Source: Escherichia coli O127:H6 str. E2348/69 (GTDB lineage: Bacteria; Pseudomonadota; Gammaproteobacteria; Enterobacterales; Enterobacteriaceae). Taken from it: DNA of 64,000 nt. Shown one piece after another: positions 13,612 to 21,282 of the stretch. The position numbers and the translations under genes were made by a program. The notes beneath the pieces are model-generated. The model had not been told where the DNA came from. It did not search any database and was given only the letters and a program-made list of their open reading frames with translations. Location: assembly GCF_000026545.1 (NCBI RefSeq), contig NC_011601.1; one strand, 5' to 3'. Position 1 is the first letter of the stretch, and each line of letters starts with the position of its first letter.

Positions 13612-15528
13612 ATGGGTAAAATAATTGGTATCGACCTGGGTACTACCAACTCTTGTGTAGCGATTATGGATGGCACCACTCCTCGTGTACTGGAGAACGC
13701 CGAAGGCGATCGCACCACGCCTTCTATCATTGCCTATACCCAGGATGGTGAAACTCTGGTTGGTCAGCCGGCTAAACGTCAGGCAGTGACGAACCCGCAA
13801 AACACCCTGTTTGCGATTAAACGCCTGATTGGCCGCCGCTTCCAGGACGAAGAAGTACAGCGTGATGTTTCCATCATGCCGTTCAAAATTATTGCTGCTG
13901 ATAACGGCGACGCATGGGTCGAAGTTAAAGGCCAGAAAATGGCACCGCCGCAGATCTCTGCTGAAGTGCTGAAAAAAATGAAGAAAACCGCTGAAGATTA
14001 CCTGGGTGAACCGGTAACTGAAGCTGTTATCACCGTACCGGCATACTTTAACGATGCTCAGCGTCAGGCAACCAAAGACGCAGGCCGTATCGCTGGTCTG
14101 GAAGTAAAACGTATCATCAACGAACCGACCGCAGCTGCGCTGGCTTACGGTCTGGACAAAGGTACTGGCAACCGTACTATCGCGGTTTATGACCTGGGTG
14201 GTGGTACTTTCGATATTTCTATTATCGAAATCGACGAAGTTGACGGCGAAAAAACCTTCGAAGTTCTGGCTACCAACGGTGATACCCACCTGGGTGGTGA
14301 AGACTTCGACAGCCGTCTGATCAACTACCTGGTTGAAGAATTCAAGAAAGATCAGGGCATTGACTTGCGCAACGATCCGCTGGCAATGCAGCGCCTGAAA
14401 GAAGCGGCAGAAAAAGCGAAAATCGAACTGTCTTCCGCTCAGCAGACCGACGTTAACCTGCCGTACATCACTGCAGACGCGACCGGTCCGAAACACATGA
14501 ACATCAAAGTGACTCGTGCGAAACTGGAAAGCCTGGTTGAAGATCTGGTAAACCGTTCCATTGAGCCGCTGAAAGTTGCACTGCAGGACGCTGGCCTGTC
14601 CGTATCTGATATCGACGACGTTATCCTCGTTGGTGGTCAGACTCGTATGCCAATGGTTCAGAAGAAAGTTGCTGAATTCTTTGGTAAAGAGCCGCGTAAA
14701 GACGTTAACCCGGACGAAGCTGTAGCAATCGGTGCTGCTGTTCAGGGTGGTGTTCTGACTGGTGACGTGAAAGACGTACTGCTGCTGGACGTTACCCCGC
14801 TGTCTCTGGGTATCGAAACCATGGGCGGTGTGATGACGACGCTGATCGCGAAAAACACCACTATCCCGACCAAGCACAGCCAGGTGTTCTCTACCGCTGA
14901 AGACAACCAGTCTGCGGTAACCATCCACGTGCTGCAGGGTGAACGTAAACGTGCGGCTGATAACAAATCTCTGGGTCAGTTCAACCTGGATGGTATCAAC
15001 CCGGCACCGCGCGGCATGCCGCAGATCGAAGTTACCTTCGATATCGATGCTGACGGTATCCTGCACGTTTCCGCGAAAGATAAAAACAGCGGTAAAGAGC
15101 AGAAGATCACCATCAAGGCTTCTTCTGGTCTGAACGAAGATGAAATCCAGAAAATGGTACGCGACGCAGAAGCTAACGCCGAAGCTGACCGTAAGTTTGA
15201 AGAGCTGGTACAGACTCGCAACCAGGGTGACCATCTGCTGCACAGCACCCGTAAGCAGGTTGAAGAAGCAGGCGACAAACTGCCGGCTGACGACAAAACT
15301 GCTATCGAGTCTGCGCTGACTGCACTGGAAACTGCTCTGAAAGGTGAAGACAAAGCCGCTATCGAAGCGAAAATGCAGGAACTGGCACAGGTTTCCCAGA
15401 AACTGATGGAAATCGCCCAGCAGCAACATGCCCAGCAGCAGACTGCCGGTGCTGATGCTTCTGCAAACAACGCGAAAGATGACGATGTTGTCGACGCTGA
15501 ATTTGAAGAAGTCAAAGACAAAAAATAA
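13612..15528 (+). CDS. dnaK: chaperone Hsp70
   Basis: 638-aa [24 protein letters not shown]. Confidence 0.97.
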
Positions 15529-15616
15529 TCGCCCTATAAACGGGTAATTATACTGACACGGGCGAAGGGGAATTTCCTCTCCGCCCGTGCATTCATCTAG
15601 GGGCAAATCAAAAAAG

Positions 15617-16747
15617 ATGGCTAAGCAAGATTATTACGAGATTTTAGGCGTTTCCAAAACAGCGGAAGAGCGTGAAATCAAAAAGGCCTACAAACGCCTG
15701 GCCATGAAATACCACCCGGACCGTAACCAGGGTGACAAAGAGGCCGAGGCGAAATTTAAAGAGATCAAGGAGGCTTATGAAGTTTTGACCGACTCGCAAA
15801 AACGTGCGGCATACGATCAGTATGGTCATGCTGCGTTTGAGCAAGGCGGCATGGGCGGCGGCGGTTTTGGCGGCGGCGCAGACTTCAGCGATATTTTTGG
15901 TGACGTTTTCGGCGATATTTTTGGCGGCGGACGTGGTCGTCAACGTGCGGCGCGCGGTGCTGATTTACGCTATAACATGGAGCTCACCCTCGAAGAAGCT
16001 GTACGTGGCGTGACCAAAGAGATCCGCATTCCGACTCTGGAAGAGTGTGACGTTTGCCACGGTAGCGGTGCAAAACCAGGTACACAGCCGCAGACCTGTC
16101 CGACCTGTCATGGTTCTGGTCAGGTGCAGATGCGCCAGGGTTTCTTTGCCGTGCAGCAGACCTGTCCTCACTGTCAGGGCCGCGGTACGCTGATCAAAGA
16201 TCCGTGCAACAAATGTCATGGTCATGGTCGTGTTGAGCGCAGCAAAACGCTGTCCGTTAAAATCCCGGCAGGGGTGGACACTGGAGACCGCATCCGTCTT
16301 GCGGGCGAAGGTGAAGCGGGTGAACACGGCGCACCGGCAGGCGATCTGTACGTTCAGGTTCAGGTTAAACAGCACCCGATTTTCGAGCGTGAAGGCAACA
16401 ACCTGTATTGCGAAGTCCCGATCAACTTCGCTATGGCGGCGCTGGGTGGTGAAATCGAAGTACCGACCCTTGATGGTCGCGTCAAACTGAAAGTGCCTGG
16501 CGAAACCCAGACCGGTAAGCTGTTCCGTATGCGCGGTAAAGGCGTCAAGTCTGTCCGCGGTGGCGCACAGGGTGATTTGCTATGCCGCGTTGTTGTCGAA
16601 ACACCGGTAGGTTTGAACGAGAAGCAGAAACAGCTGCTGCAAGAGCTGCAAGAAAGCTTTGGTGGCCCAACCGGCGAGCACAACAGCCCGCGTTCAAAGA
16701 GCTTCTTTGATGGCGTGAAGAAGTTTTTTGACGACCTGACTCGCTAA
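15617..16747 (+). CDS. dnaJ: chaperone Hsp40
   Basis: 376-aa [40 protein letters not shown] with Gly-rich linker and four CxxCxGxG zinc-finger repeats; ATG at 15617 (track start 15587 is an extension). Confidence 0.97.
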
Positions 16748-16851
16748 CCTCCCCAAAAGCCTGCCCGTGGGCAGGCCAGGGTAAAAACCAGGGTGCGTTG
16801 AAGATATGCGAGCACCTGTAAAGTGGCGGGGATCACTCCCCGCCGTTGCTC

Positions 16852-17004
16852 TTACTCGGATTCGTAAGCCGTGAAAACAGCAACCTCCGTCTGGCCAATT
16901 CGGATGTGAACCTCACAGAGGTCTTTTCTCGTTACCAGCGCCGCCACTACGGCGGTGATACAGATGACGATCAGGGCGACAATCATCGCCTTATGCTGCT
17001 TCAT
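16852..17004 (-). CDS. hokC: Hok-family type I toxin
   Basis: 50-aa ORF MKQHKAMIVALIVICITAVVAALVTRKDLCEVHIRIGQTEVAVFTAYESE. Confidence 0.85.
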   Translation of the reverse strand: MKQHKAMIVALIVICITAVVAALVTRKDLCEVHIRIGQTEVAVFTAYESE

Positions 17005-17061
17005 TGCTCTCTTCTCCTTGACCTTTCGGTCAGTAAGAGGCACTCTACATGTGTTCTGCAT
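16852..17061 (-). CDS. mokC: mokC, overlapping reading frame that enables hokC translation
   Basis: in-frame upstream Met (MQNTCRVPLTDRKVKEKRA...) extends hokC to 69 aa, as in hok/mok loci. Confidence 0.65.
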   Translation of the reverse strand: MQNTCRVPLTDRKVKEKRAMKQHKAMIVALIVICITAVVAALVTRKDLCEVHIRIGQTEVAVFTAYESE

Positions 17062-17107
17062 ATAGGGGGCCTCGGGTTGATGGTAAAATATCACTCGGGG
17101 CTTTTCT
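17053..17107 (+). ncRNA. sokC: sokC antisense RNA (approximate placement)
   Basis: placed by position relative to the mokC start, by analogy with hok/sok loci; boundaries not verified from sequence. Confidence 0.3.
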
Positions 17108-17618
17108 CTATCTGCCGTTCAGCCAATGCCTGAGACAGACAGCCTCAAGCACCCGCTGCTATTATACTGCGCTTTTAATTCACTTCTGTTTTATCAATTC
17201 TTTTTCTGAAGACGCCTCGCATTTTTGCGGAATAATATTTCAATACATCAATTTATTTAACTTAAATATATCCAGGGATTCACAAAAAAAGGTGTTTTCC
17301 TCTATCAAAAGTGAATGGCTAAAGGAAATTAATTATTAAAGGTTACTGTAATACTATAGAGAGATAAAGAAATACGTTCAGCAGCCAATGCTAAGTTCAT
17401 CATGAAAAATGCCTATAAATCAAAGGGTGATGTTTAAAACAGACACATTTTCTGAAACACGATATCCCTCCGCCCGTTCGCAAAAGTAATCTGCGATCTT
17501 CATCACGCTTCGATAGTCATCTTTAAATATACTGGCCTGGTCATTCTTAATAAAAATGAATTGTCTGGTGTATTAATTCCTATGGAATCATAAAAACAAT
17601 GAATGGAGAACATATTAT

Positions 17619-18380
17619 ATGTCTGCCAAAAGACGACTTCTTATTGCGTGTACCCTGATAACAGCTATCTATCATTTTCCTGCATATTCTTCATTAGAAT
17701 ATAAAGGAACCTTTGGTTCAATAAATGCGGGTTATGCAGACTGGAATAGTGGATTTGTAAACACTCACCGTGGTGAAGTATGGAAAGTGACTGCGGATTT
17801 TGGGGTAAATTTTAAAGAAGCAGAATTTTACTCATTTTATGAAAGTAATGTACTCAATCATGCTGTAGCAGGGAGAAATCATACGGTTTCAGCAATGACG
17901 CATGTCAGACTCTTTGACTCTGATATGACATTCTTTGGCAAAATTTATGGCCAATGGGATAACTCATGGGGTGACGATCTGGACATGTTTTATGGATTCG
18001 GTTACCTCGGCTGGAACGGCGAGTGGGGCTTTTTTAAACCGTATATTGGATTGCATAATCAATCTGGTGACTACGTATCAGCTAAATATGGTCAAACGAA
18101 TGGTTGGAATGGTTATGTTGTTGGCTGGACAGCAGTATTACCATTTACGTTATTTGACGAAAAATTTGTTTTATCTAACTGGAATGAAATAGAACTGGAC
18201 AGGAACGATGCTTACACGGAGCAGCAATTTGGCCGGAACGGGTTAAATGGCGGTTTAACTATTGCCTGGAAGTTCTATCCTCGCTGGAAAGCCAGTGTGA
18301 CGTGGCGTTATTTCGATAATAAGCTGGGCTACGATGGCTTTGGCGATCAAATGATTTATATGCTTGGTTATGATTTCTAA
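17619..18380 (+). CDS. small outer-membrane beta-barrel channel, Tsx/OmpK-like (KdgM-like is an alternative)
   Basis: 253-aa ORF with N-terminal signal-like region, Trp/Tyr/Gly-rich alternating segments (WNGEWGFF, GWNGYVVGW) and C-terminal ...MLGYDF ending in Phe; low-GC gene preceded by ggagaa RBS. Confidence 0.65.
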   Translation: MSAKRRLLIACTLITAIYHFPAYSSLEYKGTFGSINAGYADWNSGFVNTHRGEVWKVTADFGVNFKEAEFYSFYESNVLNHAVAGRNHTVSAMTHVRLFDSDMTFFGKIYGQWDNSWGDDLDMFYGFGYLGWNGEWGFFKPYIGLHNQSGDYVSAKYGQTNGWNGYVVGWTAVLPFTLFDEKFVLSNWNEIELDRNDAYTEQQFGRNGLNGGLTIAWKFYPRWKASVTWRYFDNKLGYDGFGDQMIYMLGYDF

Positions 18381-18400
18381 TTTTTTATCAGGGAATAATT

Positions 18401-19894
18401 ATGCAGAAAACGTTAATGGCCAGTTTGATCGGCCTTACAGTTTGCACAGGGAATGCTTTTAGTCCTGCCTTAGCCGCAGAGGCTAAACAACCTAATTTAG
18501 TCATTATTATGGCGGATGATTTAGGTTATGGCGATTTAGCAACATATGGTCATCAGATCGTTAAAACACCTAATATCGACAGGCTTGCCCAGGAAGGGGT
18601 CAAATTTACTGACTACTATGCCCCCGCTCCTTTAAGTTCACCTTCACGCGCAGGGCTATTAACCGGCCGGATGCCATTTCGTACTGGAATTCGCTCATGG
18701 ATTCCTTCAGGCAAAGATGTTGCCTTAGGGCGTAACGAACTCACGATTGCTAATCTACTCAAAGCGCAAGGGTACGACACGGCAATGATGGGTAAGCTGC
18801 ATCTGAATGCAGGCGGCGATCGCACCGATCAGCCACAAGCACAAGATATGGGCTTTGATTACTCACTGGTTAATACGGCGGGCTTTGTTACCGACGCCAC
18901 GCTGGATAACGCTAAAGAACGCCCGCGTTATGGCATGGTTTACCCGACAGGCTGGCTACGTAACGGGCAACCCACTCCACGAGCCGATAAAATGAGCGGT
19001 GAGTATGTCAGTTCGGAAGTCGTCAACTGGCTGGATAACAAAAAGGACAGCAAGCCTTTCTTCCTCTATGTTGCTTTTACCGAAGTGCATAGCCCCCTGG
19101 CTTCGCCCAAAAAATACCTCGATATGTACTCACAATATATGAGCGCGTATCAGAAGCAGCATCCTGATTTATTTTATGGCGACTGGGCAGACAAACCCTG
19201 GCGTGGTGTGGGGGAATATTATGCCAATATCAGCTATCTGGATGCACAGGTTGGAAAAGTGCTGGATAAAATCAAAGCGATGGGTGAAGAAGATAACACC
19301 ATCGTTATTTTTACCAGTGATAACGGTCCGGTAACGCGTGAAGCGCGCAAAGTGTATGAGCTGAATTTGGCAGGGGAAACGGATGGATTACGCGGTCGCA
19401 AGGATAACCTTTGGGAAGGCGGAATTCGTGTTCCAGCCATTATTAAATATGGTAAACATCTACCACAGGGAATGGTTTCAGATACACCCGTTTATGGTCT
19501 GGACTGGATGCCTACTTTAGCGAAAATGATGAACTTCAAATTACCTACAGACCGTACTTTCGATGGTGAATCGCTGGTTCCTGTTCTTGAGCAAAAAGCA
19601 TTGAAACGCGAAAAGCCATTAATTTTCGGGATTGATATGCCATTCCAGGATGATCCAACCGATGAATGGGCGATCCGTGATGGTGACTGGAAGATGATTA
19701 TCGATCGCAATAATAAACCGAAATATCTCTACAATCTGAAATCTGATCGTTATGAAACACTTAATCTGATCGGTAAAAAACCAGATATTGAAAAACAGAT
19801 GTATGGTAAGTTTTTAAAATATAAAACTGATATTGATAATGATTCTCTAATGAAAGCCAGAGGTGATAAACCAGAAGCGGTGACCTGGGGCTAA
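18401..19894 (+). CDS. periplasmic sulfatase, Ser-type
   Basis: 497-aa ORF; signal peptide ending ALAAEA; sulfatase signature PLSSPSRAGLLTG with Ser at the formylglycine position; conserved N-terminal IIMADDLGYGD metal-binding region. Confidence 0.85.
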   Translation: MQKTLMASLIGLTVCTGNAFSPALAAEAKQPNLVIIMADDLGYGDLATYGHQIVKTPNIDRLAQEGVKFTDYYAPAPLSSPSRAGLLTGRMPFRTGIRSWIPSGKDVALGRNELTIANLLKAQGYDTAMMGKLHLNAGGDRTDQPQAQDMGFDYSLVNTAGFVTDATLDNAKERPRYGMVYPTGWLRNGQPTPRADKMSGEYVSSEVVNWLDNKKDSKPFFLYVAFTEVHSPLASPKKYLDMYSQYMSAYQKQHPDLFYGDWADKPWRGVGEYYANISYLDAQVGKVLDKIKAMGEEDNTIVIFTSDNGPVTREARKVYELNLAGETDGLRGRKDNLWEGGIRVPAIIKYGKHLPQGMVSDTPVYGLDWMPTLAKMMNFKLPTDRTFDGESLVPVLEQKALKREKPLIFGIDMPFQDDPTDEWAIRDGDWKMIIDRNNKPKYLYNLKSDRYETLNLIGKKPDIEKQMYGKFLKYKTDIDNDSLMKARGDKPEAVTWG

Positions 19895-19942
19895 CCTGAT
19901 AATCATAATAAATGTAATGTATGCCATTTAGGGCTATGCCCG

Positions 19943-19979
19943 CCTGATTCAGTGCTACGCATTGAATCAGGTTCTTTTC
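19943..19979 (+). terminator. putative rho-independent terminator after the sulfatase gene
   Basis: 9-bp stem cctgattca / tgaatcagg with 11-nt loop, followed by ttcttttcg. Confidence 0.45.
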
Positions 19980-20016
19980 GCGTTGAACAATATCAAGATA
20001 CGGCTATTCGCAGGGA

Positions 20017-21282
20017 GTGGATATGTTTACCAACGTAAATGTTGATTGTTGCAAAACACCAGGATGTAAAAACCTGGGGTTGCTGAATAGCCAGGATTAT
20101 GTCGCACAGGGTAAAAATATTTTATGCCGTGAATGTGGTTACTTGTTTCCAGTGATATCTGAACAGTCGCTTAATATTTATCGTAATATTGTGAATCACT
20201 CCTGGAGAGGTTTGATTTGCCAATGTTCAACTTGCGGAGGCACGTCCCTCAAAAAATATGGATATTCTGCACAAGGCCAGAGAAGAATGTATTGCCATCA
20301 TTGTGAGAAAACATTTATCACTCTGGAACATGTAATTACCACACCACGAGGAGCCCAGTTAGCATTGATGATTGAGCAAGGGGAGGCACTTGCGGATATC
20401 AGAAAGTCATTACTTCTTAACAGCACTGGACTTAGCCGTGAACTGTTAAAATTAGCGCGTGAAGCAAACTATAAAGAAAGTCGACAGTGTTTCCCAGCTT
20501 CTGATATTACCCTGAGTACCCGCGCTTTTCGCGTCAAGTATAATGGTAGCAATAACTCTCTTTATGCTCTTGTTACCGCAGAAGAACAAAGCGGCAGGGT
20601 GGTTGCCATCTCAACCAATTACTCCTCATCTGCCGTAGAGCAACATTATCAATACACATCGAACTATGAAGAGCGTATGTCTCCAGGGACGCTGGCACAT
20701 CATGTCCAGCGCAAAGAGTTACTTACTATGCGGCGGGATACCTTGTTTGATATTGATTACGGCCCGGCAGTTTTACATCAAAACGATCCGGGAATGTTGG
20801 TAAAACCGGTTCTTCCGGCATATCGCCATTTTGAACTGGTCAGAATACTGACCGATGAGCATTCCAACAACGTTCAGCATTACCTTGATCACGAATGCTT
20901 TATATTGGGCGGCTGCCTGATGGCTAATTTGCAGCATATTCATCAAGGTCGCTGCCATATTTCCTTTGTCAAAGAGCGCGGTGTGGCACCCGCCACCATT
21001 GATTTTCCACCGCGATTATTCCTTAGTGGTGGGGTACGAAATAATGTCTGGCGTGCATTTTCTAACCGCAATTATTCAATGGCTGTATGCAATCTCACTG
21101 GCAGTAAGAAAGTCCGCGAGATGCGGCATGCAACATTGAACAGTGCGACGCGTTTTATCCACTTTGTGGAGAACCATCCTTTCCTTATATCATTGAACCG
21201 AATGTCTCCTGCGAATGTCGTTTCTACATTAGATATCCTCAAACATCTGTGGAATAAAAAACTAGAGCATGGAACAATTTAA
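20017..21282 (+). CDS. cysteine-rich hypothetical protein with N-terminal zinc-ribbon-like region
   Basis: 421-aa ORF; first ~100 aa carry CCx4C, CxxC, CxCxxC and YCHHCEKTF motifs resembling transposase/InsA-type zinc ribbons, followed by a possible HTH; no CxxxCxxC radical-SAM motif; AGGGAG RBS favours the ATG at 20023 over the GTG at 20017. Confidence 0.6.
   Translation: MDMFTNVNVDCCKTPGCKNLGLLNSQDYVAQGKNILCRECGYLFPVISEQSLNIYRNIVNHSWRGLICQCSTCGGTSLKKYGYSAQGQRRMYCHHCEKTFITLEHVITTPRGAQLALMIEQGEALADIRKSLLLNSTGLSRELLKLAREANYKESRQCFPASDITLSTRAFRVKYNGSNNSLYALVTAEEQSGRVVAISTNYSSSAVEQHYQYTSNYEERMSPGTLAHHVQRKELLTMRRDTLFDIDYGPAVLHQNDPGMLVKPVLPAYRHFELVRILTDEHSNNVQHYLDHECFILGGCLMANLQHIHQGRCHISFVKERGVAPATIDFPPRLFLSGGVRNNVWRAFSNRNYSMAVCNLTGSKKVREMRHATLNSATRFIHFVENHPFLISLNRMSPANVVSTLDILKHLWNKKLEHGTI

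Follow-up and report, generated by a model that had tools for sequence, protein, structure and literature searches.

The hokC/mokC/sokC locus of strain E2348/69

The window, i.e. the whole stretch of 64,000 nucleotides of Escherichia coli O127:H6 str. E2348/69 that was analysed, contains a complete hokC/mokC/sokC type I toxin-antitoxin locus, which lies on the minus strand, adjoins the 3' end of dnaJ and is free of IS186. The coordinates of its elements were obtained by aligning the window with the annotated K-12 locus and were then checked on the sequence. The left boundary is formed by the dnaJ coding sequence (15617-16747, plus strand, stop codon 16745-16747), which was taken from the list of open reading frames and from the annotation of strain 2015C-4136CT1 (NZ_CP027550.1), to which the window is 100% identical across 1.1 kb. 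The coordinates coincide with those of the O127:H6 genome NZ_LT827011.1. The dnaK-dnaJ intergenic region carries a match to the Rfam small RNA tpke11 (15539-15616, plus strand; 68.8 bits, gathering 43).

The toxin gene hokC (16852-17004, minus strand) is an open frame of 50 codons plus stop, in which the codon of Ile36 is found at 16899-16897. The mokC frame (16852-17061, minus strand; K-12 annotation via alignment) starts with the ATG at 17061-17059, is in frame with hokC and comprises 69 codons plus stop, which bears out the statement of the preliminary description that both frames are of full length. The last 50 codons of this minus-strand open frame correspond to MKQHKAMIVALIVICITAVVAALVTRKDLCEVHIRIGQTEVAVFTAYESE. 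HokC matched the Pfam family PF01848 (HOK_GEF) over profile positions 1-42 of 42 with 81.7 bits (cut-off 22; E = 3e-23). In the RefSeq/PGAP annotation of NZ_CP027550.1 the 153-nt hokC coding sequence (window 16852-17004) is named mokC, and both the 69-codon mokC frame and sokC are missing, so that automated annotation of the locus is misleading.

The 5' leader of the hokC mRNA was recognized as the Rfam family RF01794 at 17154-17002 on the minus strand, the match covering model positions 1-157 of 157 with 116.4 bits (gathering 59; E = 4e-27), and the transcription start at 17154 was inferred from the start of this match. Next to it lies the promoter core (17155-17166, minus strand) with a perfect -10 box TATAAT at 17166-17161. 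The leader holds, on the same strand, tac (GGGUGCUUGAGG, 17154-17143), which is the 5' end of the mRNA (nt 1-12), ucb (AAGCCCC, 17103-17097, nt 52-58), the SokC target and dcb (GCCUC, 17042-17038, nt 113-117). The Shine-Dalgarno (SD) sequence of mok, GAGG (17073-17070, minus strand), is located 9 nt upstream of the mokC ATG, and that of hokC, AAGGAG (17019-17014, minus strand), was the same in every allele compared. The antisense RNA gene sokC was placed at 17053-17111 on the plus strand by alignment with the K-12 annotation (b4413); its RNA is complementary to nt 44-102 of the hokC mRNA and spans ucb, the mok SD and the mok start.

Three further elements follow on the minus strand. The GC-rich hairpin GGCGGGGAGUGAUCCCCGCC (16825-16844) starts 8 nt past the hokC stop and is the empty IS186 target. 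The fold-back inhibition element fbi (CUUCAACGCACCC, 16803-16791, nt 352-364) is the predicted partner of the mRNA 5' end. The terminator of the hokC mRNA, identified from the sequence and the full-length fold, consists of the hairpin GCCUGCCCACGGGCAGGC at 16776-16759 and the run UUUU at 16758-16755; the 18-nt palindrome gcctgcccgtgggcaggc observed beyond dnaJ at 16759-16776 is this same element. With these limits the hokC mRNA would be about 400 nt long, from 17154 to about 16755; the hok mRNA of plasmid R1 has 398 nt. The preliminary description had confined the locus to 16748-17110, and this range proved too short, as 17110 is the end of sokC, and the mRNA 5' end (17154) and the -10 box (17161-17166) also belong to the locus.

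A scan for consensus promoters and terminators missed the hokC and sokC promoters and both terminators, the thresholds of the scan being too strict. An Rfam match to rpsL_pseudo at 16758-16884 was weak (19.5 bits, gathering 70) and was set aside as chance.

The IS186 insertion site

No IS186 end sequences were found in the whole 64-kb window. The absence of IS186 beside hokC, claimed in the preliminary description, was confirmed by the alignment to K-12 that had been suggested there as a check: when both MG1655 flanks were aligned, the window proved to be the exact empty site. In the annotation of MG1655 dnaJ is followed by IS186A (15387-16731), after which come mokC/hokC (minus strand) and sokC (plus strand). 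The dnaJ-side flank of K-12 ends in ggcggggatcactccc and the hokC-side flank restarts at gggatcactccccgcc, the two flanks overlapping by a 12-bp duplication, gggatcactccc, which corresponds to window positions 16829-16840.

The K-12 element had been assigned to the dnaJ terminator, and this assignment must be corrected. The palindrome at 16759-16776 is intact in K-12, and the target of the insertion is the loop and stem of the second hairpin, GGCGGGGATCACTCCCCGCC (16825-16844), about 50 bp nearer to hokC than the dnaJ-proximal palindrome. This hairpin holds GGGG(ATCACT)CCCC at 16828-16841, which is contiguous in the window and is the sole GGGG(N6)CCCC motif in the 64 kb; since the target motif of IS186 is GGGG(N6/N7)CCCC (PMC5009759), the hairpin is a canonical IS186 target. 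In K-12 the element splits the 3' hairpin and displaces fbi and the terminator by 1.3 kb from hokC, in accordance with the report that IS186 downstream of K-12 gef/hokC disrupts fbi and that the hokC of ECOR24 is without the IS element (PMC3562002). In the window no insertion separates hokC from the 3' fold-back element.

Occurrence of the uninterrupted site

A probe of 121 nt across the insertion site was scored for contiguous coverage in 5426 complete E. coli genomes, and the site was found to be uninterrupted in 3814 of them (70%). In the remaining genomes the break in the probe mostly falls within query positions 55-66, i.e. at this very site. Since most genomes are contiguous and the breaks fall at one site, the uninterrupted locus has to be regarded as the norm and the K-12 state as a common variant, and the IS-free state is not special to this strain.

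Two interrupted genomes were inspected (L003 1155-2512 and L004 1154-2512), and an IS186/IS421 transposase was found at the site in both; the two copies point in opposite directions and share their junctions and the 12-bp duplication. The 93-nt junction queries mixed the hokC copy of IS186 with other IS186 copies, and only exact top matches (100% identity, 100% coverage) were used; on this basis each junction, in both orientations, was matched in several other genomes, E. coli C included. The hairpin 3' of hokC is thus a recurrent hot spot of IS186, at which about 30% of the complete E. coli genomes are interrupted. That E. coli C is itself interrupted fits the choice of ECOR24, and not of strain C, for work on hokC in 1999.

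The locus as such is kept in 5415 of the 5426 complete genomes. Among the 11 genomes without a hokC match, HS-01 keeps the dnaJ-side flank alone, which suggests deletion of hokC, and EH41 carries at the best-matching place a divergent Hok/Gef gene (92-93% identity).

Predicted RNA structures

Folding of the full-length transcript (17154-16745, minus strand) gave a free energy of -173.8 kcal/mol (z = -6.9 versus shuffled sequences). In both the minimum free energy (MFE) and the centroid structures nt 1-12 (tac) are paired with nt 352-364 (fbi), and the terminator hairpin is also predicted. When the mRNA was shortened from the 3' end to 16822, 16812 or 16806, nt 1-8 were predicted in all three cases to pair with ucb (nt 52-58); with the ends at 16822 and 16812 the mok SD (GAGGC, nt 82-86) also pairs with dcb (GCCUC, nt 113-117). 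The fold of the shortened mRNA agrees with the published active conformer and with the consensus structure of RF01794. For hok of plasmid R1, a tac/fbi lock followed by tac-ucb refolding after 3' processing has been described (PMC9841398), and the predicted folds of hokC reproduce both states of this switch, tac/fbi in the full-length form and tac/ucb after trimming. For SokC the predicted fold (-23.4 kcal/mol, z = -4.5) has a short single-stranded 5' tail and a long terminator hairpin with a U run behind it.

The length quoted for a hokC transcript of ECOR24 is about 330 nt (PMC3562002). Since an mRNA of this length would end at 16825-16844, this hairpin is probably the structure that stops 3' trimming and gives the shorter mRNA.

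Sequence variation of the allele

The window was aligned with 8 IS-free genomes and with K-12 from which the IS element had been removed; strain 631 (L006) was left out, its terminator palindrome being different, and 9 alleles were readable. Within the transcribed region the sole change specific to the window among these 9 alleles is at 16898, where the mRNA has U in place of C; it gives the replacement T36I in HokC. A second window-specific change is found in the hokC promoter, where A replaces G at 17157; this is position -3, past the -10 box and before the transcription start. All other differences from K-12 are common to FDAARGOS_536. They are single positions in loops (17124 and 17026), at 17057 (giving MokC L2Q) and at 16778, together with an indel of 1 nt at 16788/16789, and none of them falls in tac, ucb, fbi, the dcb pentamer or either SD. 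The 8 readable alleles other than that of the window all have the same fbi. A disabling change was looked for in the 5' end, ucb, the mok SD and start codon, dcb, the hok SD and the 3' fbi, and was not found in any of them. The preliminary description had named point mutations as a route by which the locus might be inactivated independently of IS186; in part this applies to the allele, whose toxin carries the rare replacement T36I and whose promoter has the lineage-specific change at -3.

An effect of the T36I nucleotide at the RNA level is unlikely, as this nucleotide has no partner in the MFE fold and its exchange shifts the predicted MFE by 0.3 kcal/mol. In K-12 hokC mRNA, A-to-I editing at a level of 9% recodes a C-terminal Tyr to Cys (PMC12214031); the edited codon and its surroundings (16858-16872) are invariant among the alleles compared.

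Proposed regulation and biological activity

Taken together, the locus is probably the ancestral, uninterrupted hokC/mokC/sokC of the EPEC O127:H6 lineage, intact and yet phenotypically quiet in killing assays. It is regarded as intact on the basis that all known regulatory elements are present and that both alternative folds are predicted.

Transcription, processing and repression may be pictured by analogy with R1 hok/sok. A weak constitutive promoter (-10 box 17166-17161) would give the mRNA of about 400 nt described above, in which pairing of the 5' tac with the 3' fbi (16803-16791) would lock the mok Shine-Dalgarno sequence against ucb and block translation. Slow exonucleolytic trimming from the 3' end would take off fbi and halt at the GC hairpin 16844-16825, whereupon tac-ucb pairing would expose the mok start and the SokC target. 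SokC (17053-17111, plus strand) would then bind this target, translation of mok and hence of hok would be turned off, and the duplex would decay. HokC, a putative inner-membrane toxin of 50 amino acids, would be produced only when the level of SokC falls.

The locus most likely stays silent, and killing upon rifampicin treatment or gene loss is probably absent. A quiet locus is expected because the equivalent IS-free allele of ECOR24 was negative in published assays: according to the summary of Pedersen & Gerdes 1999 given in 10.1101/2025.08.07.668861, neither post-segregational killing nor activation by rifampicin was obtained with it. A rifampicin assay is also what the preliminary description had suggested as a check. 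The same source counts HokC among the chromosomal Hok peptides that are toxic when overexpressed (10.1101/2025.08.07.668861), and the silence should therefore be understood as regulatory, not as proof that the locus is functionless. The T36I replacement and the change at -3 could raise or lower the activity.

A different view is that the locus is a fully active killer module that acts like plasmid hok/sok, loss of SokC after transcription arrest, phage infection or rifampicin treatment leading to translation of the processed hokC mRNA and to death or depolarisation of the cell. Every cis element is intact, the RNA switch is predicted, HokC is toxic upon overexpression, the locus is kept in 5415 of 5426 complete genomes, and, according to PMC9841398, chromosomal expression of R1 hok is lethal when Sok is missing. 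The negative outcome with IS-free hokC of ECOR24 in both killing assays, as summarised in 10.1101/2025.08.07.668861, nevertheless makes this view unlikely, and the allele studied here moreover bears the rare T36I. The suggestion of the preliminary description that an active toxin-antitoxin system may be present in this strain is consequently not supported, since an intact locus does not imply an active one.

It is likewise improbable, on the available comparisons, that the allele is a weakened one, in which either the toxin (T36I, C-terminal, after the hydrophobic helix) or the promoter (G to A at -3) is attenuated and the locus is decaying by a route to inactivation other than IS186. Such a decay would be in keeping with the rarity of both changes. 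The exact 61-mer with the Ile codon was found in 8 of 5415 complete genomes, and the same 8 genomes carry the promoter variant; they include E2348/69 and O127:H6 records together with isolates from dog, monkey, pig and human. The K-12 61-mer with Thr36 was found in at least 5268 of the 5415 (97%), and Thr occupies this position in 112 of 120 cluster representatives of HokC/HokD-like proteins. On the other hand, Ile36 recurs in 5 of these 120 natural representatives (Salmonella, Shigella including Shigella sonnei, and E. coli, HokD variants among them), HokC-I36 is present on 681 contigs of a large collection, which indicates a stable lineage allele, and the -10 hexamer is a perfect TATAAT. More distant Hok proteins vary at the position of residue 36 (Asp in R1 Hok), which also counts against attenuation. 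From these sequence comparisons T36I appears to be rare and lineage-defining and is not obviously disabling.

It is tempting to speculate further that T36I and the change at -3 retune the toxicity or expression of an intact Hok, and that the frequent insertions of IS186 at hokC reflect selection disarming a costly toxin and not a mere target preference of IS186. These insertions occur in two orientations, in about 30% of the complete genomes; if such selection were real, IS-free alleles such as that of the window would be functional in nature. Both ideas are speculative and improbable. Lastly, a chance resemblance or mis-annotation, with no real hok locus present, is refuted for practical purposes by the Rfam (E = 4e-27) and Pfam (E = 3e-23) matches, by synteny with K-12 hokC and by an identity of 98% to its protein.

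Genomic neighbourhood and significance

Between hokC and nhaA the window contains a three-gene island (17619-21282) that is absent from K-12. Its first gene (17619-18380) encodes an OmpK/Tsx-like outer-membrane protein, its second (18401-19894) a member of the sulfatase family and its third (about 20023-21282) a hypothetical protein. The stretch directly to the right of hokC, up to 17600, has coverage in only 918 of the 5426 complete genomes. The island has been described as the 'cerebroside sulfatase' module, and a figure in the same paper covers this region of E2348/69 with its hokC, sulfatase and nhaAR modules (PMC4182557).

E. coli normally has an IS-free hokC, and this form of the locus was characterised already in 1999; the observation is thus real but not new, and it matters little beyond correct annotation. 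"Intact" is supported as a description of the locus and "active killer" is not. The data presented herein could be of use in that the true IS186 site is fixed in the 3' hairpin of hokC, every regulatory element is mapped in window coordinates, and T36I together with the change at -3 is flagged for work on chromosomal Hok function in EPEC.

Comparison with known systems

The closest counterpart is hokC (gef, b4412)/mokC (b0018)/sokC (sof, b4413) of K-12, which has the same place after dnaJ, the same strand and the same architecture. HokC is identical at 49 of 50 residues (98%), MokC at 67 of 69 and sokC at 57 of 59 nt; the 5' leader, the SD sequences, fbi and the terminator are nearly identical, and the dnaJ-proximal palindrome is intact in both. 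K-12 differs in that IS186A has entered the 3' hairpin, which starts 8 nt beyond the stop codon of hokC, and parts the open reading frame from fbi and the terminator, whereas the window differs by HokC T36I, MokC L2Q, the loops at 17124 and 17026, the 1-nt indel at 16788/16789 and the three-gene island between hokC and nhaA.

The hokC/sokC of ECOR24 (Pedersen & Gerdes 1999, Mol Microbiol 32:1090), to the extent that it is described where that work is cited, is likewise uninterrupted, keeps fbi and served as the wild-type form. Since 97% of the genomes have Thr36, the ECOR24 hokC very probably carries Thr36 as well.

With hok/mok/sok (parB) of plasmid R1 the locus shares a Hok/Gef toxin, a mok leader frame and a cis-antisense Sok across the mok start, and both states of the R1 switch, the tac/fbi lock and the ucb/dcb refolding after 3' processing, are found in the predicted folds of the window's mRNA. 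At hokC, in contrast to R1, mok is in frame with hok, so that MokC is an N-terminally extended HokC. R1 Hok and HokC are only distantly similar as proteins, and R1 hok/sok, which is proficient in post-segregational killing, is borne by a plasmid and not, as in the window, by the chromosome.
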